Source: Nemertoderma westbladi (Eukaryota > Animalia > Xenacoelomorpha). Taken from it: a stretch of 64,000 bases of DNA. The notes beneath the pieces were generated by a model that saw only the letters and a program-made list of their open reading frames with translations, was not told where the DNA came from and did not search any database. Of this stretch, positions 4,941 to 62,170 are shown in pieces. The position numbers and the translations under genes were made by a program. Location of the stretch: contig JAUCBJ010001802.1 of the NCBI GenBank assembly GCA_032718475.1, positions 1 through 64,000 on the forward strand, in the 5' to 3' direction. The first letter of the stretch is position 1; each line of letters begins with the position of its first letter.

Positions 4941-6024
4941 CCTACTATTATAATATCTCCTTATTGTAACATTTTTCTATATTTCAAAAGCGTATATTAA
5001 CTTCCAAAGAAATCATCAAACAAACAAACCATTTGTTGAATATAATATTAAAAATCAGTCTTCGTCTATATCAAAAAATTTTATTACATGTAAAGTAGTC
5101 CGTTTTTTTTTATCTGTAACAGTCTGACACTAGTTTTCACTATTTTAATCAATAAATTCGGCTTTTTCCTTTGATGGGAATTGATATCTGTTTAGCTTAG
5201 AGTTAGGAGGTGCGATACATTGAAGTTATATGTGGTTATAAAGTGAAGTTCTACTAAGAAATGTAACAAAACCGTGATCGGGAATTTTACTTTTTTCGAA
5301 TTAATCGCAATTATTTGTCTGTATACTATAAAATATCAAATACATAGGTTGTATTTTAACGATTTCCGAGGGACTTTTTCTGACAAATTTATTTGTATCG
5401 GTGCCACCGCCACTGCATATGCGGAAGACACATAGAGACAAGGTTTATGAGACTCAAGTATCACCTTCAAAGCTTTAAGCAAAACATCAAGATAGACTGT
5501 ATAAGTATAAGTGTGTTTTTGTTCCGTGTTCAGGAATTTATATCGTTATTATAATAATTAAGTGTCGCAGCGGAGACTTTAGGGATTGTGGGAATTTGCC
5601 ATTGTTATGTAATGGGAATTTCTGACTAAAGACTAACTATATATTTTATTATGTTTGAGTCTAAGTGAAACAATGTTTGAATGAAAAAATGAAACGAATG
5701 AAATTGATATGAGCCGAATTCCCACAGATAGTTCAGATGAAATGTATGTTTGTGTATTTATGATAAATTATGAAATAATTTGATAATTAAATTAAACTAT
5801 TAAACAGTTTTACAGGGAATTAACAGGGATTAAACAGGGAACATTGGTAAAATTCGCTTTTCGGTTATTTAAATTTGTTCAAGAGCTAAACTACACCATT
5901 CCATTATAATTATAGTAATTAACGGTGTCCCACAAATTACAATATTTTTTAATGAACTATATGACATAATAATCGTTGTAATTAATGTAAATGTAAATTA
6001 ATATTGATATTTTGTTTATTATAG

Positions 6025-8036: not shown

Positions 8037-8358
8037 GTAAGATTTCCCAAACCCTGGAAGTATTTTAACTTTAAAACCATAATTATTATACTAATATTGC
8101 ATTGTGAATTGTAGTCTGTTTTCATTTAAAACTGAAGCATTATCAAATAAAATTAATTCAAATTTCGTTATTTTAATCTATTAAATAAAACATTTCAAAA
8201 ACAAGTTAGATATTTGTGATTTATCTTAACGTGAGTCATGTATTATTTGTATTGATAAATGAACAGCTGATTTAGGTAGGCTGATGTTACCTACGTGACC
8301 TACAATTACAATTTACTCAGTAAGTTATTTACGATTTCAACTTTTATTGTGTTTAAAG

Positions 8359-8791
8359 ATCGAGTACGCGATGGTGTCCCAGAGTGTTCGCAACGCTTTC
8401 AGCATCGATAGACAGACCGGCGCCATCCGATCCAACATCCCCATCGACTACGAGATCCATAAATCCTATAAACTCGAGATCCGAGCCGCCAACGAGGGTC
8501 TCTACGACGACACCCACGTTGTCGTCGACGTCGTCGATATCAACGACCACGCCCCCGTCCTCAGCGACTTCCACGTGGTGTTTAACAACGTGCTAGACGC
8601 ATTTCCGGACGCCTCTATCGGACGCATACCGGCCTACGACGCAGACGCATCCGACGTGTTAGGTTACTCGGTTGTTAGGGGCAACGAGGCAAACATTCTG
8701 CTTATAGACAACGATGGTTCCATTCGTATCAACCCGTTGTTAGAACGATCGATGAAAGCTTTCACTGCAACCATGGATGTGGAGGTCACAG
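8359..8791 (+). CDS. CELSR: CELSR exon: EC8 and the atypical EC9
   Basis: IDYE, DINDHAPVL and IGRIPAYDADASD motifs typical of Flamingo EC8/9. AAAG acceptor; phase-1 G|GTTAGT donor. Confidence 0.93.
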
Positions 8792-11700
8792 GTTAGTCGA
8801 TGAAACCTAAATCTGTAGATTTTGCAAATAGAAAATATATTTGGTATCTATGAGCTGTTTTTAAATTTGGTGGACTGGTTCTTAATTTTGGGTGGGTGTT
8901 TCGTGTTTGGTTTAGGTAATGTCCTGTCCAGTGTCAATCAGAGCAGGACCACACATTACAGTAATACTGCCGCCAGATATTATTTGTTACATAATAAGAA
9001 AAAGTACCCTATAGATTGAGAGAATTTCCCAAAATTCGACTACCAGGTACCACACAAGGCCATTGCCCTCCCAGCTCTTGTGTTATGAAAGCAAAGCCCT
9101 GGGGCAAAGGGAATATTTCTCTATAATATAAACAGACAGAGATAACCCACAATATTTACATAAACTAATAAACATAATAGTATGTCTGATACACGCCCCC
9201 TCCTGGTTTAGAAAGAGATAAAGTGCTTGGTCAGCCTAATTAATTCCATATCTTCCATTCCGCCGACGTCTAACACTACATAATTGATAAGGCGTGGTAT
9301 TTTCCCTTAGTTGCCAGTATCATATCATATCTATTAACTTCTCTAATAATAATGTGGTTTAATATCAAACCTGTGATCTAGCTAGACCCTAGAGGCTGTT
9401 TACTAAACATTAACCCAATCCAACCCATGGTTTATTAATATAATAACCCAGACGCCAGCACTAAATATTTTTTAGGTTGCCACTAACACCGAGTAAGAGA
9501 CTGTCATGTAGTGTATCTTTAATAGAATCCACCATCTCAGTCTGGGGTCCCCCAGGTGCTGTAATTTAAACCATACCTAGGATATTGACCCCTGGGGGTG
9601 AACAATCCTAATAAAATGCCTTTCTTCTACCACCAGTCTATAAGTCAGTATTCGCCGTAGTCTTCAATCCATCTCCGTAATTTATTACATGGAGACTTTA
9701 CATTGCAGACATCTTATGGCTAGAAAAGCAAGTAACAAGGCTTACAGCGGTACAAGCTGCTACACTAAAAAGTTTGGTAAGGCCTTAGTGTCCCTTGCCG
9801 CTGCCTTTCTGCTGGCAATGATGTGTTTTATAATTTTATCAATACTATGTGACAGGGTGTCCCTTTGATTGGTGCCGCTCAAGGTTATAAATATAAGGTG
9901 GTCTATCTCTTTCAGAGCATCTGACATATTCTAGGAAAGAGATGTCTGAATAGCTGTGTGAGCTGTAATTTTGGCGCAGGTAGGATACTGATTCAGCCAA
10001 ACATTTAATGATTATAATTGACTTTAGAAACTCGAAAGAGGATATTCTTCGCCTTTACTCAAATCGTGAAATAAAGTTTAACAAACAATATTTCACCGTT
10101 GCCGTAATTATTATGTACACAATAAACTTTTATTGGTGGCTTATTGTTAGTTACGCAATGTTATGATTAACATGATATTAGCTTATTGTTTTGTCTGCAG
10201 GAAAAAAACATTAAGGGTATAAATTGTTTTGGCTGGTGGCTGGATAACCTATGGAGGGAGATTTCAAATCTGGTTGAACTTAAATAAGTTTTATAAGTGG
10301 TTCTTATGCGCGATAATAATATAAAAGTTCCAATTTGTAATGGGAACACTGCCGAAAGTTTCATTTTGGTAAGAAAATCACATTAGCCTCCCAAACCAAA
10401 ACCCTAAACCGGTATTGTTTGCAAGACGCGGATTTGATTAAAGCGAGATGCCCAAAGCGGTTGCTGGTTTCCGCTCTAAGCTATAGATCTACATCAATGC
10501 ATCCAAACATTCATTTACTTTACTTTTATAATAAAAGTAAAGTAAAGTTTTATTCACGTATGTTTCCAAATCACGCTAAGAGTGGATTAGAGGCTGATTG
10601 TAGACTTGCCAAACATTCAACTGCTCACCTTTACGTATCCAATCCATCTACTATTATGTCAATAATTGTAATTCATATTATTTGACCAAGTATACATAAC
10701 GAACTTACAGTACACACACAGTATTTAACGCTACTATCCTTAATTAATTAAGCCAATAGTAGTTAGATTTACATGTTTTTAAAATTCCACTATAGAGCAC
10801 GAGCCCCTAAAAATGTTACCGCGGTCAATGTTGAGGTTTATTAATGAAAACAGGATTACTTACAGGCAGCGCACTTTATTAATCTACGGTTGAGTTGTCC
10901 TAAGGGTTGTTGTGGGGACAATAGACCATTGAGGCGGCGCCAGATTTAACACATGGTATCTCTTTTGGAAGAAATTAATAGCCGGCTATGTAACGTAATA
11001 CATCAATTAGTGTGTTAATCGGTCTGGAAGTGGATGTTCTATGGTGAAGGTTGTGGCCTAGTTGTTCACTTTTTCTGCTATGCAGGATGGCCCCTTTTAT
11101 ATCGTGTGCAATGAGGTGCAAATGTTAAAATGCAGATAAGGCACACGTTGCTGATTATTATTGGGTTTGGTTTGGGATTACTTAATTATTTGATTATGAG
11201 TTCGTAAATTTTAACCGCATGGGGACTGGGGAGGCCGTTAGATAATTGGATTATCTTTACAGTTTCAGTATAGGTCTAAGGATTATTTGTTTTGTGTATT
11301 TGATTAGATTTGGATTAAACTTAGGAATCCGGCATAGTACCGTTTGTGTGCAGTTCAGTACTAAATGCGAAATTGCAAATTAAACTAATTAACCTTTAAA
11401 CACTAAACACGAAATTGCCAATTATTACATACTTGGTAATGTTGGACCGCTGTCTCAGCCTCCAGGGGTATTCTTTGAGACTTAAAGTGCGGGAGAGTAA
11501 AAATATATTGAAAATACCCATGACTGGTGCCATGTTTTGTTATATTGTAGCGCGTATAAGGACGAGTCGTATAGTAATAGTTTATAGGAATAATTGGTAA
11601 TAGTATAGTAAAGGTCGGATCAATCCTAACTTTAAAGCCGACATGGATCGCTGTCACTCATCACTGTATCACAAAAAATGACTACAAAAAACCACCGAAG

Positions 11701-15316: not shown

Positions 15317-17209
15317 ATGGTATATCTGTCAATGGCGAGATTTTTCACGTACATAAACCTGCAAACTATTAGAAACCGACGAAATATTATCATCGGTGTT
15401 TTGTTTCTTCTACTCCTTATTTACTTAATGCCGAATATATTTCGTTCGACAAAATCTTATCTGGGAATTTCTGCGAGTTCAGAATGTCTGACGAAGTTTG
15501 TCGCTTCGGAAAGTTGGGACGGTTTGGTAGCGGATGAGAAAGCGACCTTATCAACCGCGGAGGTCCCTCTCCTCCCATATCTAGGCAACGGACGACTCGG
15601 TTTCGGTTTATCCCGCGACAGTAAGCTGTACCTCCACGATCCCGGTGAGGGGGGCGAGCACTTCTACATAGATTCCGGGTTATCGCCTCTAATTAACATT
15701 ATGGTAGAATCCGGAGTGGGTTCTCGTAGTTTATCTAACGACGCGTGGGCTCTCAACATCGAATCCGCTTTCGGCTATCGGTACGTAAGTTACTCGCAAC
15801 TTGATTGTCTCACAGTAAAACAGAAGATATTCGCTCACCGAACCAAATCCTCCCTAATTGTCCAACGATTTTCCATCTACAACTACAGGGATACCCGTAC
15901 GTTGTCGGTTAAACCCGCTCTATCCACCTCGCCTTCCGACCTGACCGGTCGTTTAGGTTTAGCCGCGGATCCGGCCCCGTTAGCGGTAGCGGACTCGCAA
16001 GGTAAAGCCGTCAGTTACGTCGTCTACAAGGGAATCCTCCCGGCGGCCGAGGCGGGGGCCGATCGCGCGGTGCCGGTGTGTCTCGCGGTCCCTAAACCCG
16101 TCGTCGAGATGAGCGAACTCCCTGGGAATCCGATCGGAACCACCGAGTTCACGTTCGTCTTGGGCGTTCAGTACGGGGCCATTAGTTCTAGAACTTCTAT
16201 AACGGAGGAAGCGGTAGAGGATTGTGTGACGCGACTAAAAGAAGAGATAGAGTCTGGGATTAAACTGGTCACGTTGGAAGACAGCCACACGGAGGCGTGG
16301 AGGAGTCTATGGAGGAGTCGGTTGCACGTGGGACCGAGTAGCGAACCAGACGCCCCGAACTCGTTCGTTACCCAGTACACCATATACAACATACTGAGTT
16401 CGGTGGAGTCGCCTCTCCTAGACGTGGACGAACTGACGACCACGCGACGCGAGGAACTCGTCCGGTTGCTAAATAACCCGGAGACCTGCTTCCGGGGGCA
16501 TCCCACGGTGGACGCGGTAGCGTTGTGGCGCACTCCCGCCACCGTGGCCGACGTCCACCAACTGGTCCGGCTGTGGACGTTGACTTTGGAGAAACACGGC
16601 TGTTCGAAGATCCCCGAGTTGGGCGCCTCCGGTATGATGGAGGCGATGGTGCTGAGTTTCGCGTCGTTCACCTTCACGCAGCACCATCTCGCGCTCACCG
16701 CTGACCCGCACTACTTCCATCGCGACATCCGCCTGCGACACGTTAACTGCGAGGGTTGCTACATCCATCTGAACATATCGCTTCTCGCGGACGGCACAGC
16801 TAGTCTCAACGTATCCGCGGAGAGTTGCGAACTGCAGCTGTTCGTCTGCGGCGGCGGGTGTCTCGATAAACCGCTCCCGTTGGACGTCGAGACTTTAAGC
16901 TTCCCGGTTAAGGTAACGCGGCCTCTAACCGCGCTGCTTTACGTCGCAAAGAGCGAGAAACATTTACTGGAACTTAAGAGCGCCTTGCACATTAGGGACC
17001 TCGTGGTGTTCCACGCCAGCGGTTCCGGCTCCAATCTCGCGCTCAATATATTCTGGGTTTGCGTTGCGGTTATAGTTATATCGTTCCACGGGTTCCTCTT
17101 GGTTCTCGTGGTTCGGGAATGGCGCGGCAGCCGCAATGTGGTTGTTGATCTGCCCAGTTTGTACCGAACCGGTCGTCCACCACGTAGGAAACTCCAGGGC
17201 TGGATTTAG
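15317..17209 (+). CDS. KIAA2013: KIAA2013 homolog (DUF2152), intronless, nested in a CELSR intron
   Basis: 630-aa ORF with N- and C-terminal hydrophobic segments. Family motifs PYLGNG, LWTLTLEKHGC, MVLSF..F.FT.HHL, GCLDKP, VKVTRPLTALLY, FWV..A....SFH.FL. The start may instead be the ATG at 15332. Confidence 0.9.
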   Translation: MVYLSMARFFTYINLQTIRNRRNIIIGVLFLLLLIYLMPNIFRSTKSYLGISASSECLTKFVASESWDGLVADEKATLSTAEVPLLPYLGNGRLGFGLSRDSKLYLHDPGEGGEHFYIDSGLSPLINIMVESGVGSRSLSNDAWALNIESAFGYRYVSYSQLDCLTVKQKIFAHRTKSSLIVQRFSIYNYRDTRTLSVKPALSTSPSDLTGRLGLAADPAPLAVADSQGKAVSYVVYKGILPAAEAGADRAVPVCLAVPKPVVEMSELPGNPIGTTEFTFVLGVQYGAISSRTSITEEAVEDCVTRLKEEIESGIKLVTLEDSHTEAWRSLWRSRLHVGPSSEPDAPNSFVTQYTIYNILSSVESPLLDVDELTTTRREELVRLLNNPETCFRGHPTVDAVALWRTPATVADVHQLVRLWTLTLEKHGCSKIPELGASGMMEAMVLSFASFTFTQHHLALTADPHYFHRDIRLRHVNCEGCYIHLNISLLADGTASLNVSAESCELQLFVCGGGCLDKPLPLDVETLSFPVKVTRPLTALLYVAKSEKHLLELKSALHIRDLVVFHASGSGSNLALNIFWVCVAVIVISFHGFLLVLVVREWRGSRNVVVDLPSLYRTGRPPRRKLQGWI

Positions 17210-22667: not shown

Positions 22668-23053
22668 AAAATTATTGGTTATATGGAATAATATCGAGTG
22701 TAAAAATATCGTGAGTGAAATAAACGGGCAAAATAAATGATTATTGTTCGGAAAACTGGCGATACAAGTTTAACAAAATCCCTTGATTCGTGATTCCCTG
22801 ATTCGTGTTCGCACTCCATCTAAAACTTAAAAGGTCATTAATTAAAACTTATATAACTAAAATTGTCAATTATCGACTCAGAAATTTAGAAAATGACTCA
22901 TAATTTACCTAATTATTCGATAAATTCTTAATGAGTATGTTTTTGTTTATGTATATTTTTGCATATTGCGTCTCATCAATTCCTAATTTTAATTTAAATA
23001 TTTCGATTAAAATGATATACCATAAATATTCGCTATATTTTGTTTATTTCTAG

Positions 23054-26000
23054 GTGATAATTGCGAGATCGACTTTAGACAAACAATGTGTCGGAGACAC
23101 GGACATCTGTGCCAACCCGATTCCACTTGTATCGATACTCCTATCGGCATGAAGTGTCTCTGTCCTTCCGACAACCACGTTCAACCATTATGTATCCTAC
23201 CGGCGCGCCAATTCGTAGAAGGCGCATTCGCGAGTTTTCCATCTATCGCCACTAGATGGAGCGCGGTAGTAGAACTGGAATTCGCCACAACTCGAGACAA
23301 CGGGCTTATCTTCTACGCGGGAAGTTTCGACGCCACTGATGACTTCATATCCCTCGAACTCGTACATAGTCAGCTGATATTCTCTGTTTTTACCGGCGGC
23401 GATTTGCGGACCCAGGCAGCGACGCGAATGTCCGTGGGTTTATCGGACGGGGAGTGGCATACCGTTACCATGGAGTATAAAGTGAAACAATCCAATGGCG
23501 GTATGTACGGAGTAGTGAGTTTATCCGTGGATAAATGCGACGCCATCTTGTGGACACATGGCGATACTAATCTATCCACAGATCGTTGCTCGGAGACAGC
23601 CAATCACATCGACTCTCGTCTCTCTTTGGACCTGGAAGGACCGGTGTTTATAGGCGGGTTGCGTCGGCGGCTGAGAGACGTGTTGCTGGGCAACCGGATT
23701 CATCACGCTGACTTTGAGGGTTGTGTGCGGAACTTGCGAATTAACCACGCCCCTGTGGATATGGGCCAGTACGTAGCGGAAAAGAACTCACGTCCTGGAT
23801 GCCCCGCAAGGCGGGATTTCTGTTCGACGACGCCCTGCGACCACGGGCGTTGCGTTAACCGATACGATAAGCGGGAATGTCGTTGCGACGACGGTTGGGG
23901 TGGAGAAGGTTGCGATCGGACTGCCTCCCCAACCTACTCCTTCCGTGGATCCGGTCTGCTCACCTACGTCGTCTCACATGAAGTCGAGTTACCATGGCGA
24001 CACGAAATAATGTTCCGAACGACGAATACCAATGGACTAATCCTACACCTTACGTTCGCCTCTTTGCTAAAGTCATCGGGTCTTACAATCGATATAAATA
24101 AACATGGGCTTTTACGATATAGTCTGGACGGTAAAGTGTCCCTAGTGATGGATAGTATGCAAGTTAATGATGGTATATGGCATCACGTAGCCGCTACTTG
24201 GTCCCACACCTCGTTGAATCTCAGTCTGGATTACGGGAACCACACGAAATCGATACGGGTTGAGGGGAGGTGGATAACGTTGACAACAGTGACAGGGTTG
24301 ATGTTGGGGGGCATACTGGAAGAGCACGGCGAGGGGAAGGTGGCAGACAGGCCGTACACTGGTTGCATACAAGGGGTTGTTCTAGAGAATGAGAGGCTGA
24401 GGGAGACACCAAACGAGATAGGGGAAGTGAGACTCGGTTGCGAAGGGGTGGGTCTTGGATGCCAAGGAGTTAACCCGTGCGGTCCGCGGTCAGCTTGTAG
24501 TGAAGTCTGGGGAGGCCGCGATTGTGCGTGCGATCTTGGTTACCATGGGTACCCTGATTGTGTCCACGCGTGTTCCTTCTCTCCGTGTCTCAACGGGGGC
24601 AGTTGTGCTCCGGTTACTTTCGGTTTGGGTTATGTCTGCGAGTGCGCGGTAGGCTGGTACGGACCTACCTGCGAGGTTTCGGTGCCTAGGACCTGCCCCA
24701 ACGGCTCCTGGGGCCACCCCTTCTGCGGACCTTGCCTATGTTCCGTTACGCACTCCTTTGGGTGCGATGCGACTACGGGACAATGCCGATGTCCCGACGG
24801 GAGCTACGAGTTGGAGGGTGAGTGCGTGGATTGCAATTGCTACGTCGAAGGGTCTATCAACTCGGTATGCTCTAAGGTCGGTGGGCAGTGCGAATGTGTG
24901 AGCGGGGTCTCTGGTCGGCAGTGTAACCAGTGTCAAGGTGGTCCGTCCGGGGAAGTCACTAAACGTGGTTGCGTAGCAACCAACAACGTATGTCCGAAAT
25001 CCTTCTTAGGGGGAGTCATCTGGCCGGAGACTTCCTTAGAGAGTTTATCCAAACAGGAGTGTCCACGTGGCTCTTCGGGATTGGCTACTAGATTCTGCGA
25101 TCTTGAGTGGAACGAACCTAACTTCGTGCGTTGCTATTCGGACAAACTGAAACAATTTCAAACGTTAAATTTTACGGCAACGTCAACAGAACAAATGTTG
25201 TATCTAAGCGAAGCCATCCACGGAATTGATAGTCTGCAAGGCGGAGACTTAGTTACCATTACAACGTTATTGACTAAAGTATTGGGGTTTGAGTCAAAGC
25301 AATCAGGACTGAATATGGCGGCGTCTAGGGATGTTATTATAAATGACAATCGGTTTGTAGATAACGTCGTTCAGGTTCTCGATCGGGTAGTGGTAGAAAA
25401 ACACCTGAACAACTGGGAGAATATTAATAAAGGCGATAACCGAGACACTAATATAACGCAGTTGATTCAAGTTGTCAACGAATTTGCCATTAATATTGTC
25501 AACAATTCTGCAATGTCCTACATACAAGAGTTCACATCTAGCAGCGATGGTGTCTTATTTTCACTACACAAACTCACTAACGATCCTATAGAACTGGTAT
25601 TGCCCTTAGGCAATTTATCTTCTAGTGTTTCAATATCTCCGTTTACACAAACATTAGCTTCATCCGCCTCTCCTATAAGAATGTCAAGGGCGTCGCCAAT
25701 GCTAAAGGATGCCCATTACCACGTTATTGTTCTCATTTACAAAGATTTAGGAAAACTTTTTCCTATGAGGAAGGCTTCCACAGTTGATGATGGATATGAA
25801 TCAATGTATTCTAGAACTATTGTTAGCCCGGTGGTTTCTGTGGTATCCTCGCTTGAGTTGAGTCAATCAGCGGCCATTGATGTCTACCTAGAACTGTACA
25901 ACTACTCCGCAACTGGGAACTTAAGCTGCGTTAGTTTCGACCTGGGTGGCACCGACAGATGGAGTGCTACCATGGGCGAGTGCAACCTAACCAACATCAG

Positions 26001-28124
26001 TGGTCGCAGTGCTGTCTGCTCATGTGTTAACGTTAGCTACGTCGCAGTGATGGTAGAAACCCAATTAATTGACCACAAGCTGTTAATAACGTCAAGATTA
26101 ATAGTTTATATATTTGTTTCAATTTCTCTAATTTTCTGCTTTTTGACTGCGTTGTTTTTTGCGATTAGCAGCAAACTCCATAGCGTCATCAACGGTATCC
26201 GCATTAACTGCATATTCTCCATCATTATCAGTCAGACGGTGTTCCTCATCGGTATCAACTCAACCCAGCCGGTGATTGTTTGTCGTCTCGTCGCAGCGGT
26301 TCTCCAGTTCGCCCACACTTCCACGTTCCTCTGGCTGCTGCTAGAGGGCGTACATATCTACCGGTTGCTAAGCGAGGCCCGTGACGTCAGTAAGGGGTAT
26401 ACTCGTTACTATCTTGCGGTTGGTTACACCCTGCCATTGGTTAATCTCGCGCTGTCTATTGGTCTCAGTACAGACAGTTACGGTAACGAACGATTCTGTT
26501 GGTTATCCCTTTGGGAACCAGTAGTTTGGGGTTTCGTGGGCCCTCTTATATGTTGCCTTGTTTTAACCATATTATTCTTTGCCTTATCCGTTTTTGTGGT
26601 TATGGACAGGAAAAACAATGAAGGTGAAAAACGACTGATTATGATTGCATTGAAATCCTGCTGTATTATTCTCCCATTGGCTGTCAGTTGCTTGGTAACC
26701 GGATTACTTTCGGTTAATCACAACGATCCCATTCTGTATATTTTTTATGGTTTAAGTTGTCTATTTTTGAGCGTCGCACTTTTCACTTTGCACGTTGTGG
26801 GCAACTCACAATCTCGCAAGGAACTAGCTATAAGTTTGAAGAACTTTAATAGGTGCGCAAATGGTGGCACAAAACTTGACGAAAAATCTGCGCCGAAATC
26901 CGCCTTGGCGTATCGGAATAACAACGGAACCAACGTGGACTTAACGACATTCAAAACAGTCGCCTTCTGTCGGGATATCAGCGAATCGGGGGACAGTTAC
27001 CCCGCGGGGACGGGACACATGCACTCGGGATACTCGACCGGATCCAGTGACGAGAACCTCGCCGTGTGGCACACCTTACCGGACAGCGTGAAGGACCAAC
27101 TCCGTGATAGCATGCGATCTTCCTCGGTGGACACCGGCTGCACCATGTCCACCATAGTCGGAACGTACCCCGGACCAAAACGGTTCGGCTCTGGGAACTC
27201 TTTCTCACGCCGGAAAAAATGCAACGAGGCCCAGGACATATTATCCTACTACCATCGGGAGGACAACGGGTTCCCGGTTTTAGATTCGTTCGCGCCATTG
27301 CGGAATCCGCGTCCTGTTGTTTCCGATTCCGAGTCGTATTTGTCCCCTGATTTGACCAACACTATCCGGATTCCGGCCCGCTCGGAACCTCTGTACGAGG
27401 AGGTGGACCGAGTGATGCGTTCTAGAAACGCCACCCCCGACACTTCGCTAGCAGCAGTGAGTGTATCCGCGGTTAGCGACTCGCTCCGGGACAACATCGA
27501 TAGAGGCAGACCGATAACTCCGTTGGCTGATGTCAGACCCTCTCCGAGTGGAGGGAACAGCGAAACCAGCCCCAACGGAGTCAGAACACCCCCAAGCGGC
27601 GGGAGTCCTAAAGGGAATTCCGTCAAATCAAACAGTATCAAGGGGATATTTTACAACCCAGTGTTCGATACAAAAGTAAAAAGTAACGCGGAACAAAAAC
27701 GGAACGGTGTGGAACAGATCGAGAAAGGGGTTGAGAATGGGAACATTTATAAACGCGGGAGTCCACTAGTGGAGTCACCGCAGGCCACCAGCACTCCGCG
27801 AGGCAGCACTTCCGATCCCGACACACTGCAGCGGTACCTACCAGTAGGTCCGTGCGAGATGATAGTCGGCCGAGTGGCGGTACCCAGCGATTACCCAGAT
27901 AAGTTTGTACCGCCCCCACCAAACTCCTACATATCCTCCTTTAAGCGACTCCACCAGGACTGCAGTCTACAACCTGTATCAGTCGACGGCAAGTACAAGA
28001 TGATTCGCGTACCGGCTGAGCGCGAATACTCAATGTACCCGCCCGGGGGCGCTAATATCCGCACTATATGTTCGACGCCTCCTAAAGAGTTGTCTATTGT
28101 TTCTCAACCACCCCCAAAGCCCAT
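23054..28124 (+). CDS. CELSR: CELSR 5-kb exon: EGF, 2 laminin-G, laminin-EGF, HormR, GAIN/GPS, 7TM and cytoplasmic tail
   Basis: TTTCTAG acceptor gives GDNCEID. LamG motifs (LEFAT, DGEWHTV, FEGCVRNL), HormR (CPKSF..GVIWP), family-B 7TM (FLWLLLEGVHIY, YGNERFCWL). AT|GTGAGT donor at 28125. Confidence 0.95.
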
Positions 28125-28932
28125 GTGAGTACTATGTATGGCATACAATTAATAATTAATTTCGAGGAATATGGAATGGCCTTTTTATAGTGGTACATTC
28201 TTTAAGAATTTGGTGGCTTTACTGACGCATAAATAAAGTAAATTGACACAAATTATTTAACTTTGAAAAATTACATTAACCTGGCACAATTTTTATTTTG
28301 TTTGGCCTAGTAAAGAGACACGTAATGGAAAGGATCATAGGTCAAGAGAAATACATTTCTAACCAAAACTATATACGATATAATTTCTAATTGTGGGAAC
28401 GGAACAGTTGTGGTTGCACTTAGACTTAGACATGTTTCACTATCAGAGATTCATTCTTAACTATATTATTGATATTAACGATCATTATAAAGGAGGTATA
28501 CAATACTTTATGTGATAGTAAAGTAATGAGACGAGACTCGCCTAAATTATAACCGATATTTTATTTGCACACAACCCATCTCCGTTTACCGGTAATTATT
28601 AAATCACTTTTCTAAACTTATCAATTTCTGAGTTATTAAACAATATATTACTGACAAATATAAAAATCTACTGTATTCATTTTAGTTTTATTACGTAGTG
28701 CCCAATGGGCCTACAAACCGATTCACCTACTAACAATGGGGTCAATAAGCCAAAACGCCCGCCCTTCCCTAAACATAAAAATGTAATAATTATAAATGAA
28801 TAAATAAATGTATTGTTATAAAACTTTGGAAACAATTACATTTTCTTAAAATTGTTAACTTTATTGGAATAATAATATTTCTGGGTGCGTTATAAACTCA
28901 TTAATTAATTTGTTAACTTATTTATATTTTAG

Positions 28933-41860: not shown

Positions 41861-44083
41861 AATAATTAAATATTATATGATCTCCAAAGGGTAGGTGGGA
41901 TATAAGCCTACTATTCGGTTCTAGAACTAGAACATACAAATGGCCACAGGCCAGGTATTAAAACCGTCGAAATAATTATTTTCTTTGGAGCTTGTTTGTT
42001 CCAAAATTGACCTTGTTCAATTTTAGCGAAATTTTGATCAAAGCCAATGTTATTTTATTTTTCCTCATATGCGTCTTTAAAATTTTCCAAAATTAGGCTA
42101 TCAAAAACACTGTATAACCAACAAAACAACACATTCTAACAATTTTATACTTATATTATATTTTAGGGTCCTCCAGATAAAAGTGGCCCTATTCCATCGA
42201 AAAAAACCGTGCTGCTAAGGACTGCCAAACCGATAAATCGAATTTGAGAAATAAACAAGATCAACTGCTTCAGATATGAAATCTCCATTACATTCGACAC
42301 AAGATAAAACTATGAAACAAATTTTAGAATATTCAGCACAGGGGGTGCTGTGTTACAATCCCACCCCAGTGAGTCCAAGATACACCTCACACCCGCGTCC
42401 CTCTTTCTTCCAATATTTTTATAAATAGGCTTACTGTACCACTCAATGTACGTAATGTACTGCCGCGCCGCGAAGCCGGTGGTAAGGAATTCTGCAATAT
42501 CTGAATCGCACTGTATGCTACTGTTGTGAAATGTTGTGAAAGTAATATAATGTTATTCTTAATAAACCTACATTAAAAGGCAAAAAACAAATTAGGCTAC
42601 ATTGTAAATTATTGTTGGGTTTGACCCGAATATGAGCCTTATTGTTTTTTTTTTATAAAAAATAGGTAGTATATCATCTCGACCCTCCCAAAGTGTACAG
42701 AATATTATGGTGTGGCTGTTTGTTACCAGCGAGAATTGAAAGATTTAGATTATTGGAATTTGAATGAGGTTAAATATTGCCCATTACCCAACCAGAGCAT
42801 CCAATTCCTAGACCAAACTGATTCATCTTGACCCTCCCAGACTATAGAGATTATGTAGTTGGACGTTCCCAGCAAGAATTCAAAAATGTCGTCTTAGATT
42901 AGGTGAGTTTTAACGAGGTTCGGTATTAGCCAATTAGAGCATCACCATCACATACCTAGATCTCAGACCCTATGAATCTGTAAATTTGCGAGTAAACTGC
43001 GGTACCTAATACCATGTAGAGTTAGACGTCGATAGATATGATAGAAATTATTCCATCCAATGAGTCATAATATGGGGTTTGGGGCAAAGATAATTTATTA
43101 ATATTCATTTATATTTATAATTTAAATTAGGTAAAATAATTAATATATATAATTATTACATTGGCAACAATTAAAAAACGATGATAACTTACAGTACCGT
43201 AGATACAGCCCATTCTACATTGCCCAATTTCAGAATAAAATTAAAAACAGCTTTATAAAATGCAATAGACTACGTAACTATTCAACTATTTATTATATAG
43301 AAAGGTGATTGATTATAATAATAATAATACAACTGAAAATAAAACTGAAAATGATATAAAACTAATAAACACAGTTAAATAAATTCGCACAATTGGCTTG
43401 ATAGAAATAACTGAAAAGTCAATATAAACTTATTGAGTACGTAGTTAATTAAAGACCAGGAAACAATAAGAAAAATGAATGCTGGAAGTGGAATGCATCA
43501 AAAAATTAAATAAAATATAATTTACGACAAAGAGTAATAATGTCGTAGGTACATTATCGCAACATAGTGTTCTGAGAGTATTACTGTATGCTAAAGCTTA
43601 CCTTATTGTTGGAACATTGTAAGTATGTGTTGTATTTGAAATTCTATATATACTGTAAATGAGGATTATTAATAGTTTTTTTTTTAGCGCGATGATAAGG
43701 TAACTAATTAATTATAAGTTACAGTATACAGATATACGTAATCATATCAGTTATAATTTAGGTTTAGTTCTCATAGTGTATCGTGATTTAACCTGGAGCG
43801 CTAGAGCTCTATTATTAGTTCTCACTACACTAGCTAGTCAGACTAGATGGCAATGGCACCAATTAATTTCCGTGTTTACCTGTTAGCCCCCATGTATATA
43901 ATTTTATTATCAATTGGAATTGGTAACAAGATCGCTTATTGTTTTGGTTACAAAAATAATAATATTGTAATATTAATATATTATTATTATATTGTAAATA
44001 ATATTGCACGGCTACTTGACGCTAGTGAGGGCGCAGTGGTGTTACGCTACTCCCTCGATACGGATAGTCGCATTACTTTTCCA

Positions 44084-44760
44084 GTAGCCGTAACGTACGT
44101 TACAGTCCCGTTACTGCTACTGTCGCGTTACAACTACTGTCGCGTTACGGCTACTCCCTGGTGTTGTTTTACTTAGATTAATCCTATAGATGTTGATAAG
44201 AGGCTCATTAAAAATTAAATTAAATAAAACGAGAACGTCACAGATTTCAGATCTCTATAAGACAATTTTTCAATTTCATTCTAATAGAAAGCTATTGCAC
44301 TTCGCGCCATTTATATAATTAAATTATCGAGTTAACGGCCCCGAATGGCAGCTGGTTCTGTGCAGCGTGCAGTTAGCCGCTTATGGATCGGCAACGAAGT
44401 TGTGGTTCTAATAGAGATCTTCTAGAGAATAATATCTTACACGTCTATAAAAGTATCTAAGTAAAACAACACAAGGGCGAACCCGCAACGGGAAAGTAGC
44501 CGTAACGGGACAGCAGCCATAACGGGACACCCCGTAACGGTACTACCCGTAACAGGACACTCCGTAACGGGACAGTAGCCGTAATGCAACTAGACAGTAG
44601 CCGTAACGGGACAGTAGCCGTAACGAGACAGTAGCCGTAACGTGATAGTAACCGTATTGGGACAAAAACCGTAACGGGACAGTAGCCGAAACGCAACGCG
44701 ACAGTAGCCATAACGCAACGGGACAGTAACCGCAACGGGACAGTAGCCGTAACGAGACCA
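44084..44760. mobile_element. Degenerate foldback element with 17-bp GTAGCCGTAACGGGACA arm repeats
   Basis: Inner arm ends CCCTGGTGTTGTTTTACTTAGAT (to 44178) and ATCTAAGTAAAACAACACAAGGG (from 44455) are inverted copies, each flanked outward by oppositely oriented 17-bp repeats. Confidence 0.7.
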
Positions 44761-44928
44761 CAACCTAGTGAGAACTAAGAAGATGGACACCGGGTGCTGA
44801 TAAGTTAACATAATGTAAAAAAATCCTGTGAAATCCTATGGGTTAGGAGCACAGACAGCACTGATTAATGATTATAACTAATTTTGAACCACAGTCCCCA
44901 ATCCATGCGTTAGAAGCATCAAACTACA

Positions 44929-47055
44929 TTAAAATGAGGGTATATAGGTATCTAAAATGCTCTTGCAACTTGGTCGCCTTTCTGGGTTGATATCAACCAT
45001 TGTTTTAATCGCTGACGAAACACAAGGAAACTTCTTTTCGAAGTCGTCCAGTAAACATCCCGTGGTACTACCGGTGCGCAGTTTATTAAATATCTGAGTT
45101 CGATCTTCCTTATCACAAGGATGGTAGATCTCCAGCAGTATTAAACCCAAAGCAAATATGTCCGCTGGTTGACCATAATCAGTGCCGTACTGCTCTGGAC
45201 TCATATATAAAGGCGTACCAACACGGGATGTCTGTTCAATCTTATCTATTTGGGCGTTGTTGCAAGGTCCATGTTCTGGTTTTCTCTGTATGCTACTAAC
45301 TAAACCGAAATCTCCAATTTTAACTTTACCACCATTTGCAAATAGGATATTCGAAGGTTTCAAATCCCTGTGAATTAAACGACCTCCATCGTAATTGTGT
45401 ATATACTCAACACCGGTAACTATACTTTCGAAGTATTTACGCCCTTTGGGGTAATCACGGTTGACAGGGTTTTCGTCCAGCCACTGGCGAAGTGTCCCCC
45501 CCGTGCACAGTTCCAACTGGATGTACAGGTAGGGGCATATCAAGCTGCTCGCTCCCCCATCAGTTGAAGATTCCTTCAAACTGACCTCGGAATGTTTTCC
45601 TAAATTATCATATGTTTTACTTGAATTGGTTGTCGATCTACAACTACATTCGAGAGTGTCGTATTTGGATCTGGCATCAACTTTAACCATCCTCTCCAAC
45701 TTACTGTCATGATGTTTAACCCATCCGGCTGGAGGTGTTTCAATCCAACATGAAGAATATCCCACGATATTCGGATGCTGCAGCGACGATAGAACACGAA
45801 CTTCCCTTAGAAGCCTATCTTTCTTGTCTTTATCACCATAATTAGCAATGGCGATGCGTTTAACAGCATAGGGTTTATCTTCCAAACGGTGTTGCACTTT
45901 AAAAACAACCCCAAAGGTACCGCCACCGATATATTTAACATCATCAAAATTATCTTTGAAAAAAGATAGGAATTCACGATCTTCCTTTGTCTCAGGTTCA
46001 GGATGTGTTATATCTATATGTTGTCCAATTGTAGTGTCAGCAATCTCATTATGCTGCGTTGTCCCACCAGCAACATCCATATTCTGAGTTCTTCCACCAG
46101 TTACCTCTCTATGCTGTGTTGTCCCACCAGCAACCTCTCTATGCTGCGTTGACCCACCAGCAACCTCACTATGAAGGGCTTGCACTTTGGCGGCTTTCCC
46201 GAGATGCTTTAAAGATTCATTATGTTCTCTAAAAGGTTCTGCTCCAGTTGTCTGTATGCCACAAATATTACAGAAAAACTTATTTTTTTCAGATGGTGAA
46301 TCAACAGCACCAGCAACTATCACTGTACTGGTACTGGGACTGGTAGGTTGTAAATTCCCATCAGGAACTAAACTCTCTGCTACTTTTTTCTTATGTTTAG
46401 TAGAATCCAAATGTTGTTGAAATGGTGCATCCCCAGACATATGTACTCGGCATTGTTTGCAGTCATGTATACCATCGTAATCGGATTCAATTATGTTTGT
46501 TAGTGACTCCTGTTTTGCAACTCTTTTGTTGTGTCCTCCGGACTCCAAATGCTGCTTGAGGGAAGCAGCCCCAGACATATGTAGTTGACATGGTTTGCAA
46601 TCAAATTGACCATTGAAAGAGTCAGAAGAAGCAATGGGCATGATAGGTGGGCACGGGTTGACGTTGACAGAAGTTTTAAATACCTCCTCACACTTCCGCA
46701 TATGTTTACTTGATTGTTCATGCTGCTTCTGGTTATCTCTTCCCGACACTTTAAGGCGACATATTTTACACGTATAAACATCACTGAGAACTGACTTGAG
46801 ATCTTCCTTATTTCGCGTGTGCTTCAGAGATAGATAGTGTTGTTTGAGAGGCTCTGGTCCGTTTACGGTGACATCACAGATTTTGCATTTATAAAAACCG
46901 CCATTGTCAGGTTGACATTCGTCTTTCAACTTCAGCAAAAGTTGAAGTTCTTCTATTTTGCGGTTGTGTTTATCAGAATCATGATGTTGTTTTAGAGGAG
47001 CTGGTCCAGTTAGGCGGATCTGGCAAATTTGGCAATCTAAGATTCCATTAAACAT
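44929..47055 (-). CDS. eIF2-alpha kinase (PERK/PKR-type domain) with six N-terminal JAZ/matrin-type C2H2 zinc fingers; intronless
   Basis: Six C-x2-C-x12-H-x5-H fingers. Kinase motifs GGGTFGVV, YAVKRI, REV..L..L.HPNIV.Y...W, insert, YLYIQLELC, IHRDLKPSNI, KIGDFGL, VGTPLYMSPEQ, DIFALGLILLE. Confidence 0.92.
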   Translation of the reverse strand: MFNGILDCQICQIRLTGPAPLKQHHDSDKHNRKIEELQLLLKLKDECQPDNGGFYKCKICDVTVNGPEPLKQHYLSLKHTRNKEDLKSVLSDVYTCKICRLKVSGRDNQKQHEQSSKHMRKCEEVFKTSVNVNPCPPIMPIASSDSFNGQFDCKPCQLHMSGAASLKQHLESGGHNKRVAKQESLTNIIESDYDGIHDCKQCRVHMSGDAPFQQHLDSTKHKKKVAESLVPDGNLQPTSPSTSTVIVAGAVDSPSEKNKFFCNICGIQTTGAEPFREHNESLKHLGKAAKVQALHSEVAGGSTQHREVAGGTTQHREVTGGRTQNMDVAGGTTQHNEIADTTIGQHIDITHPEPETKEDREFLSFFKDNFDDVKYIGGGTFGVVFKVQHRLEDKPYAVKRIAIANYGDKDKKDRLLREVRVLSSLQHPNIVGYSSCWIETPPAGWVKHHDSKLERMVKVDARSKYDTLECSCRSTTNSSKTYDNLGKHSEVSLKESSTDGGASSLICPYLYIQLELCTGGTLRQWLDENPVNRDYPKGRKYFESIVTGVEYIHNYDGGRLIHRDLKPSNILFANGGKVKIGDFGLVSSIQRKPEHGPCNNAQIDKIEQTSRVGTPLYMSPEQYGTDYGQPADIFALGLILLEIYHPCDKEDRTQIFNKLRTGSTTGCLLDDFEKKFPCVSSAIKTMVDINPERRPSCKSILDTYIPSF

Positions 47056-58200: not shown

Positions 58201-59473
58201 AGTGAAATAAAACAGCAGAAAGTCAGGTATACTTCACATGAGCCACGGGATTGGAATTCTTCATGGAATAGTGATTTAATTTTATACACATTTTTCTTGG
58301 GTGGGTGCAGTTCTGTGTGGCGGTGTAATGGATGAAACGGGTTTTGGGACACTTTATATCATTTTATTTAAAACTGTTACTATTACTGTGAAAAATTGAT
58401 ATAATAAAATGATTACACGAGGTAATTTATTACTTCTGATACCGGTAGTTTAGATATGTAAACGTAATTAAAAAAATAAGTTGTCCAAGTACAGTATTAC
58501 TACCAATTTTAATTTATTTAATTTAATTAGTTAATTAATTTGAAATTCAAATTTAAAAAATGAATTTGTATAGATTTTTCCATGGAGTGTTGAATGTTGA
58601 TCGTGTCAAAAGTCCCCCCCAACCCCCCCCCCCCACCCATCTGCGTTTTGTAGGGCGATGGTGATGTGTTTCAAAAATATGGTTTAAAAAATTTGGATAT
58701 ATAAAAGTATTTTAAGTTATTAACTAACTATACTTGATCAACAAAAACGATAGAGCTGTTTGAAAAAAATACAATTATAATATAGGCCTAACTAGTTTAA
58801 ATTACACAAATTTCATTCTTAAATTTGGAAAAAAAATAAAAAGTTTAAAAAAAGCGACCTTTGATTAAAACGATGTCATGTTGGGAACGCGAATGAAAGT
58901 GGGACATTTAAAATTTTTCAGATGTTTACATGTACAAACTCAGACGACTCAACTGAAATAAACAGATCGAGTGAATCCCCAAGCTCGTCGATGGGAACCC
59001 TGCGTTTACTATCGCGATTGTCTCAGCAAGTCAAAACAATGGTGGGGACTTGGGAACCAGAACCAAAGGAAAGATCCCAACAAAATCCAGATGTGGATGA
59101 ATCCATCATAGTTGGGGTAAATGGAAACACATCCATTATAGACAATGAGAGACAAGATGGAACAACGATTAGTGATGGTAGAAAAAGCGAGGAACAATTC
59201 CAGACATCGAAGATAGTGGATCCTGTGACCGAAGATACATGTACCGAGAGCAGGAATTTACTTGTGAATAATAAAGCAGAGCTAGAGGACGAATTCAATG
59301 TGTGGGAAGATGCTGTAGATGAACAGGAATGGATAGGTAATCAAACACCGGTGATTGGACCGATGTTAATATCCACATCAGAGATGCTCGCACCTGGCCA
59401 ATCAGACATCGAGAGTGATATAAGTAGCGGACATGCTGGAGGCTACACAGAAGAAGATTCAAAGGAAAACTAA
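55230..59473 (+). CDS. Probable multi-exon lineage-specific gene (~412 aa). Exons 55230-55415, 56149-56351, 56810-56968, 57612-57750, 58922-59473
   Basis: Each piece is bounded by AG/GT with consistent phases (0,2,2,0). The product has an N-terminal hydrophobic stretch, a coiled-coil-like region and an acidic C-terminus. No homolog recognised. Confidence 0.5.
57415..57612. repeat. 33-bp tandem repeat, ~6 copies
   Basis: Unit TTTATATAAACACCTGTGATTGTATTAATTAGG. Confidence 0.9.
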
Positions 59474-61123: not shown

Positions 61124-62170
61124 TTACTCTCTACCCTGTTCTAGAATGTTCAAGGCTTTCCTAAGATAGTCTACGGCAGTCGGTACGTCATCGTACTCCA
61201 AGGCGCTTTTGCAGTACATACAGTATTTCTGTGCCGCTTCAGAGAGGGCCGCGGTGAGGGGAGCGCCGTTGAGACAGGTACTAGGGGGTTCGGGTTGTTC
61301 GACGGATGGTTGGGGGACCCCGCGCCCGGTAGAGGGGGCAGGGGGTACCTGGGACGACGTGCCCAAAGAGGACGCCCCTGGCCCCAGACCAGACGCCCCT
61401 GGCCCCAGACCAGACGCTCCGGGCCCCAGGCCAGACGAGCCGGGTCCCGGACCAGACGCCCCGGGCCCCAGACCAGACGCCCCGGGCCCCAGACCAGACG
61501 CCCCGGGCCCCAGACCAGACGCCCCGGGCCCCAGACCAGACGCCCCGGGCCCCAGACCAGACGAGCCGGGTCCCAGACCAGACGCCCCGGGCCCCAGACC
61601 AGACTGCCCCGGTCCGATTTGGCCCATCGACCCTCCCACAAACCCGACCTCCGGACCGCTTATAGGATTGCCCTCCGCGTCCAACGGGCCAGCGTGCGGC
61701 GTCTCTCCTCGACTCAAGCACCCGTGGATATACGCAGCCTTAAACCTCGCGTATTTCCTCTTCTCTTCCGCTTCAGCCGGGATATCGTCAAACACGGAAA
61801 GAATATCGAATATGAGAGCGGAAGAGTAAAAGGATTTAACAACAGCCTTATTGAACTGTCCCGCTCGGTCGCGTGTATCCGCCCAGTTGAACAGTTTAAT
61901 CGCGTACTCTTCTATATATGCGGCGCCGACTACCTCATGGGTGACCTCTTCTCGGTCTCCCATAGACTTCTTCGCTTTCTCTAGTCTATCCATCAACCCG
62001 AGGAGGAAGGACTTTGCCTCCGGGGATTTACTGTCCAGTTTTATTGCGGTGTTCATTGCGTACATCCGGGAGTAGTACGCCACTACCGGGTCCCGGTTGT
62101 CGTGATCTTCCGCTGTCTTTAGGTGGTGCTTCACCTGGGAGAGACTCGGGGGGAGACTGGATGACGTCAT
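61124..62170 (-). CDS. VTA1: Vacuolar protein sorting-associated VTA1 (LIP5), intronless
   Basis: N-terminal MIT region (RDPVVAYYSRMYAM, LFNWADTRDRAG, KYARFKAAYIH.CL..GETP.AGP) and C-terminal VSL (AQKYC.Y..SALEYDDVPTAVDYL.KAL). Confidence 0.95.
   Translation of the reverse strand: MTSSSLPPSLSQVKHHLKTAEDHDNRDPVVAYYSRMYAMNTAIKLDSKSPEAKSFLLGLMDRLEKAKKSMGDREEVTHEVVGAAYIEEYAIKLFNWADTRDRAGQFNKAVVKSFYSSALIFDILSVFDDIPAEAEEKRKYARFKAAYIHGCLSRGETPHAGPLDAEGNPISGPEVGFVGGSMGQIGPGQSGLGPGASGLGPGSSGLGPGASGLGPGASGLGPGASGLGPGASGLGPGASGPGPGSSGLGPGASGLGPGASGLGPGASSLGTSSQVPPAPSTGRGVPQPSVEQPEPPSTCLNGAPLTAALSEAAQKYCMYCKSALEYDDVPTAVDYLRKALNILEQGRE

Follow-up and report, generated by a model that had tools for sequence, protein, structure and literature searches.

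A domain-based survey traced PKR back to bony fish as its point of origin (PMC5851622), and PKR was reported missing from Aplysia (PMC9334734), so the route from dsRNA to translation shut-off in invertebrates is poorly charted. One locus of Nemertoderma westbladi, within the 64,000-nucleotide stretch of DNA analysed here (the window), raises the question of whether a non-vertebrate animal has joined a zinc-finger dsRNA sensor to an eIF2-alpha kinase in one polypeptide.

Architecture and integrity of the gene

The locus is a 708-aa ORF (P0001) read on the minus strand from an ATG at 47055 to a stop at 44929; the plus strand over 44929-47055 is stop-rich. Its features are:

44929..47055, minus strand: single ORF P0001, six fingers, linker and kinase, 708 aa; covered end to end, with 0 gaps, by one X3 contig
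46966..47034, minus strand: zinc finger 1, aa 8-30; zf-met 19.9 bits, below cut-off
46819..46887, minus strand: zinc finger 2, aa 57-79; zf-met 27.8 bits, passes; ZNF346 finger 2mkd matched weakly, at E 0.06
46702..46770, minus strand: zinc finger 3, aa 96-118; zf-met 19.9 bits, below cut-off
46531..46599, minus strand: zinc finger 4, aa 153-175; zf-C2H2_jaz 22.9 bits, passes
46393..46461, minus strand: zinc finger 5, aa 199-221; zf-C2H2_jaz 23.6 bits, passes
46204..46272, minus strand: zinc finger 6, aa 262-284; zf-met 19.2 bits, KIN17-type 19.1 bits
45976..46170, minus strand: acidic linker, aa 296-360; net charge -6, contains a repeat
45715..45975, minus strand: kinase N-lobe, aa 361-447; Gly loop, K399, E418, F365/N369, E-x-P-P-x-G-W at aa 439-445
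45541..45714, minus strand: insert typical of eIF2-alpha kinases, about aa 448-505; modelled as partly disordered
44941..45540, minus strand: kinase C-lobe, aa 506-705; LYIQLELC, HRD, DFG, T609, altered alphaG motif at aa 647-652

The frame is free of stops and indels in contigs of runs X3 and X4, which come from two other studies. These contigs differ from the ORF at 19 coding positions, none of them a zinc ligand or catalytic residue; with 6 synonymous and 13 non-synonymous changes (pN/pS 0.63, p 0.24), polymorphism does not show constraint on the ORF. A 77-base X3 contig with gaps at 46124-46168 was discarded, being a short, loose-ended match judged unrelated. No contig of runs X6 and X7 (organisms B and C) aligned at 80% likeness, which does not prove absence from these organisms. 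The Vta1, Med21 and DUF2152 genes of the same window are likewise single ORFs.

A motif scan found six C-x2-C-x12-H-x5-H fingers, starting at aa 8, 57, 96, 153, 199 and 262 and separated by linkers of 26, 16, 34, 23 and 40 residues, and no others in any of the window's six reading frames; shuffling the protein 10,000 times never gave more than one such motif, and gave exactly one in 19 cases. Pfam assigned zf-met (4e-16) and zf-C2H2_jaz (6.7e-14) to the whole protein. Scanned singly, three of the six fingers passed the cut-offs (21.2 bits for zf-met, 22.6 for jaz) and the other three scored 19.2-19.9 against 21.2; the top model was zf-met or jaz for every finger. Identity between fingers is only 28-47%, yet all 24 zinc ligands are kept, which points to long selection on the fingers. 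The finger region has a pI of 8.5, and its top PDB matches, both weak, were ZNF346 (E 0.06) and ZFa (E 0.14). None of the six fingers has a basic residue at position -2 from the last His, as the three aligned ZNF346/ZFa fingers do; around this His, Lys is found at -1 in five of six fingers and net charge ranges from 0 to +5.

The linker, which carries a 30-bp unit in 4.5 copies (46038-46173), is predicted to be flexible from its composition. With a highest 19-residue hydropathy mean of only 1.0, the protein has no TM segment, and there is no dsrm, z-alpha, RWD, HisRS-type or HRI (PF22949) domain among the seven Pfam families listed. The signal peptide, lumenal domain and TM of PERK are absent from the ORF, and a tblastn search with 376 proteins, including many full-length PERKs, gave no match under E 0.01 in the window outside the ORF.

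The kinase (Pfam Pkinase, 8e-45 for the whole protein) has a complete catalytic set: G377/G379/G382, K399, E418, HRD at 562-564, N569, DFG at 582-584, E621, D632 and R694. The family insert that follows beta4 is present, and LYIQLELC, at aa 510, occupies the position of the family motif L-Y/F-I-Q-M-E/Q-x-C. In the PDB, 19 sequences match at E<=1e-25, every one of them an eIF2-alpha kinase, the best E-values being 7e-47 for PERK, 2e-44 for PKR, 8.8e-41 for HRI and 1.5e-40 for GCN2. The predicted structure (pLDDT 84) matched PERK and PKR best, and the structural matches listed, down to rank 36, are exclusively PERK, PKR or GCN2. T609 aligns with PKR T446, a position held by Thr in 22/22 PERK and 17/18 HRI rows and by Thr or Ser in 11/12 PKR/PKZ rows.

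We conclude that a non-vertebrate animal carries here an intact gene in one ORF, with six JAZ-type fingers, an eIF2-alpha-kinase-family domain and no membrane anchor. An earlier note had described a single 708-aa ORF of six zf-met/zf-C2H2_jaz fingers and an intact kinase with the family insert and LYIQxExC motif, lacking a TM segment, dsRBM, Z-alpha, RWD and HisRS domains; the ORF, motif, Pfam and hydropathy analyses, together with PDB matches, fold and alignment, uphold this description and place it on the minus strand.

Departures from the family and a modelled dimer

Two features that went unmentioned in that note set the kinase apart. The inter-N-lobe R-D salt bridge (PKR R262-D266), described as strictly conserved and required for activation (PMC6467004), is absent, with F365 and N369 in its place. 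Alignment shows R/K/H and D/E at these positions in 22/22 PERK rows and R and D/E in 18/18 HRI rows; the bridge is also absent from the Z-alpha row P0225, which like our ORF has Asn at the Asp position, and from some other PKR/PKZ rows. The alphaG motif, T-x-x-E-R as defined by our own alignment, here reads C-D-K-E-D-R; it is shorter by one residue, lacks the Thr and has Asp for Glu. We take the Thr and Glu to be PKR T487 and E490; the Thr is found in 22/22 PERK, 17/18 HRI and 9/12 PKR/PKZ rows, and the Glu in all 52. AlphaG is the docking site for eIF2-alpha (PMC6467004), and a 12-residue helix is still predicted there (aa 649-660).

A homodimer model scored 0.44 against 0.00 for the best control, with at least 90% of contacts agreeing between runs and a pLDDT of at least 71, and its interface sits on the N-lobe. 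F365 is predicted to pack on the partner's F365 and W437, where PKR has its salt bridge. Of 29 eukaryotic pairs, 17 attained the same mark (7 of 16 from animals), as did none of 30 single chains; of seven pairs with no older solved relative, only one attained it. Because the PKR and PERK dimers have already been solved, the pass may reflect those known structures.

Origin of the kinase and comparison with known systems

In the main tree, of 62 rows including 18 HRI and excluding nematode-type cytosolic kinases, the kinase lies outside both crown PERK (100/97) and crown PKR/PKZ (99/96). A position sister to PERK had support of 89/84 and was recovered in 893 of 1000 bootstraps of the full alignment; a position sister to PKR rose from 87 of 1000 to 800 of 1000 when the columns of a short PERK-type motif were left out, and grouping with PKR was not rejected (p-AU 0.229). 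HRI grouping appeared in 0 of 1000 bootstraps, with no formal rejection (AU p 0.065). Two other placements were discarded: an affinity to nematode-type cytosolic kinases (FastTree, 273 domains, support 0.54) disappeared once 18 HRI rows were used in a tree that excluded the nematode-type rows, and proximity to the sole HRI row of a 73-row quick tree, in which nematode-type rows fell inside PERK, was likewise lost with 18 HRI rows.

The locus had been proposed as a convergent PKR analog. Because placement with PERK or PKR depends on one short motif, and the PKR grouping survives the AU test, convergence is plausible but not shown. We consider it an even call that the gene derives from a duplicated PERK which shed the lumenal and TM portions, gained fingers and converged on PKR. 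A less probable but serious possibility is that it split off early within the PKR lineage and uses a different sensor, and any other origin seems improbable.

Layout brings the protein closest to vertebrate PKR (EIF2AK2), which is also cytosolic and has N-terminal RNA-binding repeats (predicted in our ORF), a linker and an eIF2-alpha kinase; the two share Thr at the T446 position and, in contrast to PERK, H389, K394, C436, E515, G520 and G548. PKR differs in having dsRBMs where our ORF has six C2H2 JAZ-type fingers, in its R262-D266 bridge, and in a gene of 17-18 exons (PMC5851622) compared with a single ORF. Fish PKZ, a PKR-type kinase whose nucleic-acid sensor has been exchanged (PMC13712846), is a precedent for such a swap; its sensor is Z-alpha, its host a vertebrate, and our kinase falls outside its clade. 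PERK (EIF2AK3) is the top single sequence and structure match and shares E-x-P-P-x-G-W at the insert start (P441, P442, G444 and W445 occur in 20-22 of 22 PERK rows), in contrast to its signal peptide, lumenal domain, TM and longer insert. HRI has the PF22949 N-terminal helical domain, and GCN2 has RWD, pseudokinase and HisRS-like domains, none of which is among the Pfam matches of our ORF.

The finger region resembles ZNF346/JAZ, dsRBP-ZFa and rice DRG9, which have several widely spaced zf-met/jaz fingers. Binding of dsRNA has been shown for ZNF346 and DRG9 (PMC10957929), and these finger proteins are not known to contain a kinase; our fingers lack one basic helix residue. The list of animal eIF2-alpha kinases first drawn up for this locus (PERK, GCN2, HRI, PKR, PKZ) was incomplete: it omitted an oyster (Crassostrea gigas) gene named PKR, which is reported to be linked to an antiviral response to poly(I:C) (PMC4883820), and dsRBM-kinases without a name that fall outside the PKR clade of vertebrates. 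A PKR-like kinase in an invertebrate is therefore not unprecedented in itself. What relates the oyster gene to ours is its name and its antiviral association; no mollusc match in our sequence searches had fingers of this type.

Fingers and kinase occurred together in none of 375 other proteins retrieved, and a literature search found no protein of this architecture, in agreement with the suggestion that it is undescribed. Protein-collection searches, metagenome scans and runs X6 and X7 yielded no orthologue, a scan of viral sequences for the finger region found no relative, and the matching ESM Atlas clusters, among those of at least 50 members, were kinase-only or finger-only. By exact look-up none of seven window proteins is in the protein collection; this animal is probably poorly represented there, which makes the missing orthologues weak evidence.

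A candidate RNA-sensing kinase and its rivals

By analogy we infer RNA binding, RNA-dependent activation, an antiviral role and eIF2-alpha as substrate. RNA duplexes would be captured by the fingers, and RNA-bound fingers may gather the kinase domains into a back-to-back dimer, as modelled; dimerization would lead to phosphorylation, likely of T609, and then of eIF2-alpha, turning translation off. We judge the case for a cytosolic sensor kinase that shuts off translation in response to dsRNA to be evenly balanced. In human cells with dsRNA, knockdown of ZNF346 lowers PKR activation and overexpression raises it (bioRxiv 10.64898/2026.06.03.729416, preprint); the two modules fused here thus already cooperate as separate human proteins, in trans where ours are in cis, and the sensor reading gains outside support from a protein with the same finger type. 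The altered salt bridge and alphaG motif, the missing basic -2 residue and the presence of related fingers in proteins not known to sense dsRNA count against it, as do polymorphism that shows no constraint and the failure to find an orthologue.

The fingers might instead bind the cell's own structured RNA or RNP (rRNA, pre-60S, snRNP or retroelement RNA), with the kinase signalling ribosome or RNA-processing stress, not infection, through eIF2-alpha. Further matches of the finger region, to Bud20 (E 0.3) and Vms1 (E 0.82) in the PDB and to KIN17-type and zf-C2H2_2 profiles, are consistent with this; to our knowledge KIN17, Bud20 and Vms1, which carry related fingers, are not dsRNA sensors. The helix tail is also less basic than in the finger-only proteins P0122 and P0123, and ZNF346 is mainly nucleolar (bioRxiv 10.64898/2026.06.03.729416). 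We consider this explanation unlikely, with zf-met or jaz the top model throughout and six spaced copies seemingly better suited to avid binding of long duplexes than to one docking site. The changes to the alphaG docking motif and to the dimer salt bridge, along with a long terminal branch (1.24 against a median of 0.44), would also fit an RNA-binding kinase with a substrate outside the eIF2-alpha pathway, or a decoy that soaks up viral inhibitors of PKR type. This too we doubt, and somewhat more strongly: the catalytic residues are all retained, the alphaG helix is still predicted, PKR-clade rows vary at the same sites, and PKR itself evolves fast under viral pressure (PMC13712846).

The ORF could also be just the final exon of a gene for a larger protein, which may be membrane-anchored, or a recent fusion that is not expressed. 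Upstream of the ATG lie 18 further open codons, with AG dinucleotides at 25, 39 and 56 bases; no AATAAA or ATTAAA occurs within 700 bases past the stop; GC3 is 0.35, versus 0.54-0.64 in five neighbouring housekeeping-type ORFs; and pN/pS is not significantly below 1. Against this stand the absence of indels from 2.1 kb of coding sequence whose flanks have gaps in the contig comparison, the retention of every zinc ligand in divergent fingers, the empty tblastn search and the single-ORF genes nearby, and we regard a partial or non-working gene as improbable.

The protein may represent a third type of eIF2-alpha kinase that senses nucleic acids, after PKR with its dsRBMs and PKZ with its Z-alpha, a proposal to which we give slightly less than even credence: a zinc-finger dsRNA sensor that places ZNF346-PKR cooperation in one chain, derived independently from PERK or surviving from a pre-vertebrate branch of PKR. 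If so, its mechanism would be directly testable, because yeast SUI2-S51A and poly(I:C) kinase assays are standard; searches for dsRBM plus kinase would overlook such sensors; and the reported ZNF346-PKR link would gain evolutionary support. A natural kinase without the R-D bridge and the alphaG Thr would test how strict both rules are, and, should it belong on the PKR stem, the PKR lineage would predate vertebrates.

A reading frame with six zinc fingers and a kinase

The earlier note had described one open reading frame in which six fingers precede a kinase, and the frame was recovered as described.

Features of the finger-kinase gene
47055..44929, minus strand: finger-kinase ORF P0001, 708 codons
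Motif starts at aa 8, 57, 96, 153, 199 and 262, minus strand: fingers 1-6 of P0001, C-x2-C-x12-H-x5-H

Upstream of the ATG the frame stays open for 18 further codons, to 47109. Pfam scores Pkinase, zf-met and zf-C2H2_jaz over cut-off in P0001; scanned singly, three of the six fingers exceed a cut-off and the remaining three lie 1.3-2 bits under. No further copy of the finger motif exists in any of the window's six frames, and 10,000 shuffles of P0001 never gave more than one motif each. As claimed, P0001 has no transmembrane segment (top 19-residue hydropathy 1.0, located in the kinase). It has no Pfam match to dsrm, z-alpha, RWD, anticodon-binding or HRI domains, and by defining domains it falls into none of PKR, PKZ, PERK, HRI and GCN2.

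The region is present in four DNA runs from three studies. Run X1 matches the coding part nearly letter for letter, and may be the source of the window. One contig of run X3 crosses the entire ORF and two contigs of run X4 cover it, in both cases with 0 gaps, which rules out an assembly join as the origin of the fusion; the finger-kinase architecture is real. No second copy at ≥80% likeness was found in X3 or X4.

P0001 shares the window with a CELSR/Flamingo gene whose exons are very large, and also with a DUF2152 gene, a C2H2 gene, Vta1 and Med21. The Med21 protein aligns to its mammalian counterpart but differs from it at many positions. CELSR is characteristic of animals, and the divergence of Med21 suggests a non-vertebrate host. 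Because Vta1, Med21 and DUF2152 likewise consist of one ORF each, a kinase gene of this form is unremarkable here and retroposition need not be invoked. GC3 is 0.35 in P0001, similar to the C2H2 gene, and 0.54-0.64 in five other neighbouring ORFs. A tblastn search of the window with 376 fetched proteins, many of them full PERKs, gave nothing at E<0.01 outside the P0001 ORF, and thus no sign of an upstream PERK lumenal exon within the window.

About 150 bases past the P0001 stop begins a stretch of ~760 bases (44012-44775) in which a 17-bp minisatellite forms inverted arms; 44105-44178 and 44455-44528, for instance, are 82% complementary. An X4 contig joins 44011 directly to 44776, making this a polymorphic insertion; if in the 3' UTR, it could fold into a long duplex within the mRNA that encodes the kinase. 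Elsewhere, the DUF2152 gene (15317-17209, plus strand, KIAA2013-like) is a single ORF. On the same strand it is flanked by the cadherin exons of CELSR/Flamingo (5997-8796) and by that gene's LamG-to-7TM exon (23026-28128), and is apparently nested in an intron. The latter exon is unusually large, one 1700-codon frame encoding LamG, EGF, GAIN, 7TM and tail. Vta1 (61124-62170, minus strand) carries 11.5 copies of a 21-bp repeat encoding a Gly/Pro/Ser-rich linker. An acidic, Ser-rich frame of 202 codons at 58865-59473 (plus strand), with no Pfam match, is probably an exon of a gene without assigned identity.

Placement of the kinase domain

All 19 PDB sequences matching the kinase at E<=1e-25 are eIF2-alpha kinases, led by PERK (7e-47) and PKR (2e-44), then HRI and GCN2. 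A model built from a 60-row alignment (pLDDT 84.1) likewise matches PERK first and PKR second. By descent, P0001 is a member of the eIF2-alpha-kinase family.

From 389 extracted kinase domains we chose 62 for a tree: 22 PERK, 12 PKR/PKZ, 18 HRI, 1 GCN2, 4 from two unnamed dsRBM-kinases, 4 protist/ciliate, and the query, labelled from source names, Pfam or motifs, with protist/ciliate labels guessed. The careful tree supports PERK (100/97), PKR/PKZ (99/96) and HRI (96/92), with the query outside all three, on a long branch sister to PERK at 89/84; in 1000 bootstraps it joined PERK 893 times, PKR/PKZ 87 times and HRI never. Forcing the query to PKR was not rejected (p-AU 0.229); forcing it to HRI gave p-AU 0.065. 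When 15 columns around the PERK-type motif E-x-P-P-x-G-W were removed from the linsi alignment, the query moved to PKR/PKZ at 83/35 (800 of 1000 bootstraps, 155 with PERK). At five columns discriminating PERK from PKR it carries two PERK states, two PKR states and one of neither. The query belongs close to the PERK/PKR split. The family placement proposed earlier stands; the proposed convergence with PKR is plausible rather than established, with deep orthology as its alternative: the sister group switches with the motif columns, and grouping with PKR has p-AU 0.229.

Two unnamed proteins in the tree, P0134 and P0171, each carry two tandem units of dsRBM and kinase; their kinases group together, separately from vertebrate PKR (100/99), and the proteins are possible further independent PKR analogues. 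Another unnamed eIF2-alpha kinase, P0244, carries a PQQ-type propeller at its N terminus together with a hydrophobic segment, a layout like that of PERK, but groups away from animal PERK.

We also predicted a homodimer of aa 356-708, without the 60-row alignment. The prediction passed, scoring 0.44 with the best control at 0.00; no less than 90% of contacts are shared between runs, and pLDDT is 71 or higher. Its interface is on the N-lobe (aa 363-369, 391-394, 416-424, 434-438), where F365 contacts the partner's F365 and W437. Of eukaryotic pairs, 17 of 29 attained this mark; 7 of 16 did so among animal pairs, 1 of 7 among pairs that lack a solved older relative, and 0 of 30 among single chains. 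Structures of the PKR and PERK dimers are already solved, so the pass may reflect likeness only.

Search for the same architecture

No other protein joining such fingers to a kinase was found, bearing out the suggested novelty within the scope searched. No finger family occurs in the 120 of 1719 matches listed, and no such finger in the best 150 of 386,103 matches among 1.84 billion representatives, below which a distant finger-kinase scoring under ~150 bits would fall. The collection probably covers this lineage poorly, since none of seven tested window proteins is in it. Searching 1252 candidates with the finger region gave two matches, both finger-only, and a six-finger profile against the 376 proteins (E<0.05) found only P0001 and the finger-only proteins P0122 and P0123. 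The top kinase identity among 273 domains is only 46%, indicating no close orthologue among the best matches listed. The literature covered, mainly open-access with few subscription papers, yielded no description of a zinc-finger eIF2-alpha kinase; published accounts cover a gene named PKR in oyster (PMC4883820), Aplysia without PKR (PMC9334734), and PKZ (PMC13712846).

Possible functions

An incomplete or silent gene is the least likely reading. X3 and X4 together show 19 coding differences, 6 synonymous and 13 non-synonymous (pN/pS 0.63, p 0.24), and this polymorphism is no proof of constraint; the differences introduce no stop and leave all zinc ligands and catalytic residues unaffected. 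A stronger sign of constraint is that the fingers are pairwise 28-47% identical, yet keep 24 of 24 zinc ligands. A changed substrate, or a decoy role, is slightly more probable, though still unlikely. The catalytic residues are complete and the activation-loop Thr (T609) is retained. According to PMC6467004, the PKR N-lobe salt bridge R262-D266 is strictly conserved and required for activation, and alphaG is the docking helix for eIF2-alpha. P0001 has F365/N369 instead of the bridge, which is missing too in some PKR/PKZ rows, including the Z-alpha protein P0225, and its alphaG motif is C-D-K-E-D-R, against T-x-x-E-R in the family, and one residue shorter. With two family motifs altered, eIF2-alpha is not assured as substrate.

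Surveillance of ribosomes or endogenous RNA is a somewhat better candidate, at roughly a one-in-five level of belief. The finger region finds ZNF346 (E 0.06), ZFa (E 0.14), then Bud20 and Vms1 in the PDB, all weakly. The basic residue at -2 from the last His, present in three aligned ZNF346/ZFa fingers, is missing from all six P0001 fingers, which counts against a dsRNA sensor analogous to ZNF346; five of the six have Lys at -1, and net charges run from 0 to +5. In a 2026 preprint (10.64898/2026.06.03.729416), ZNF346 enters dsRNA-induced foci, its knockdown lowers p-PKR, and its overexpression raises p-PKR only with dsRNA. There ZNF346 and PKR are separate proteins, whereas P0001 unites a module of each kind in a single chain. 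By this analogy the most likely reading, in which we place moderate confidence, is that P0001 would work like PKR.
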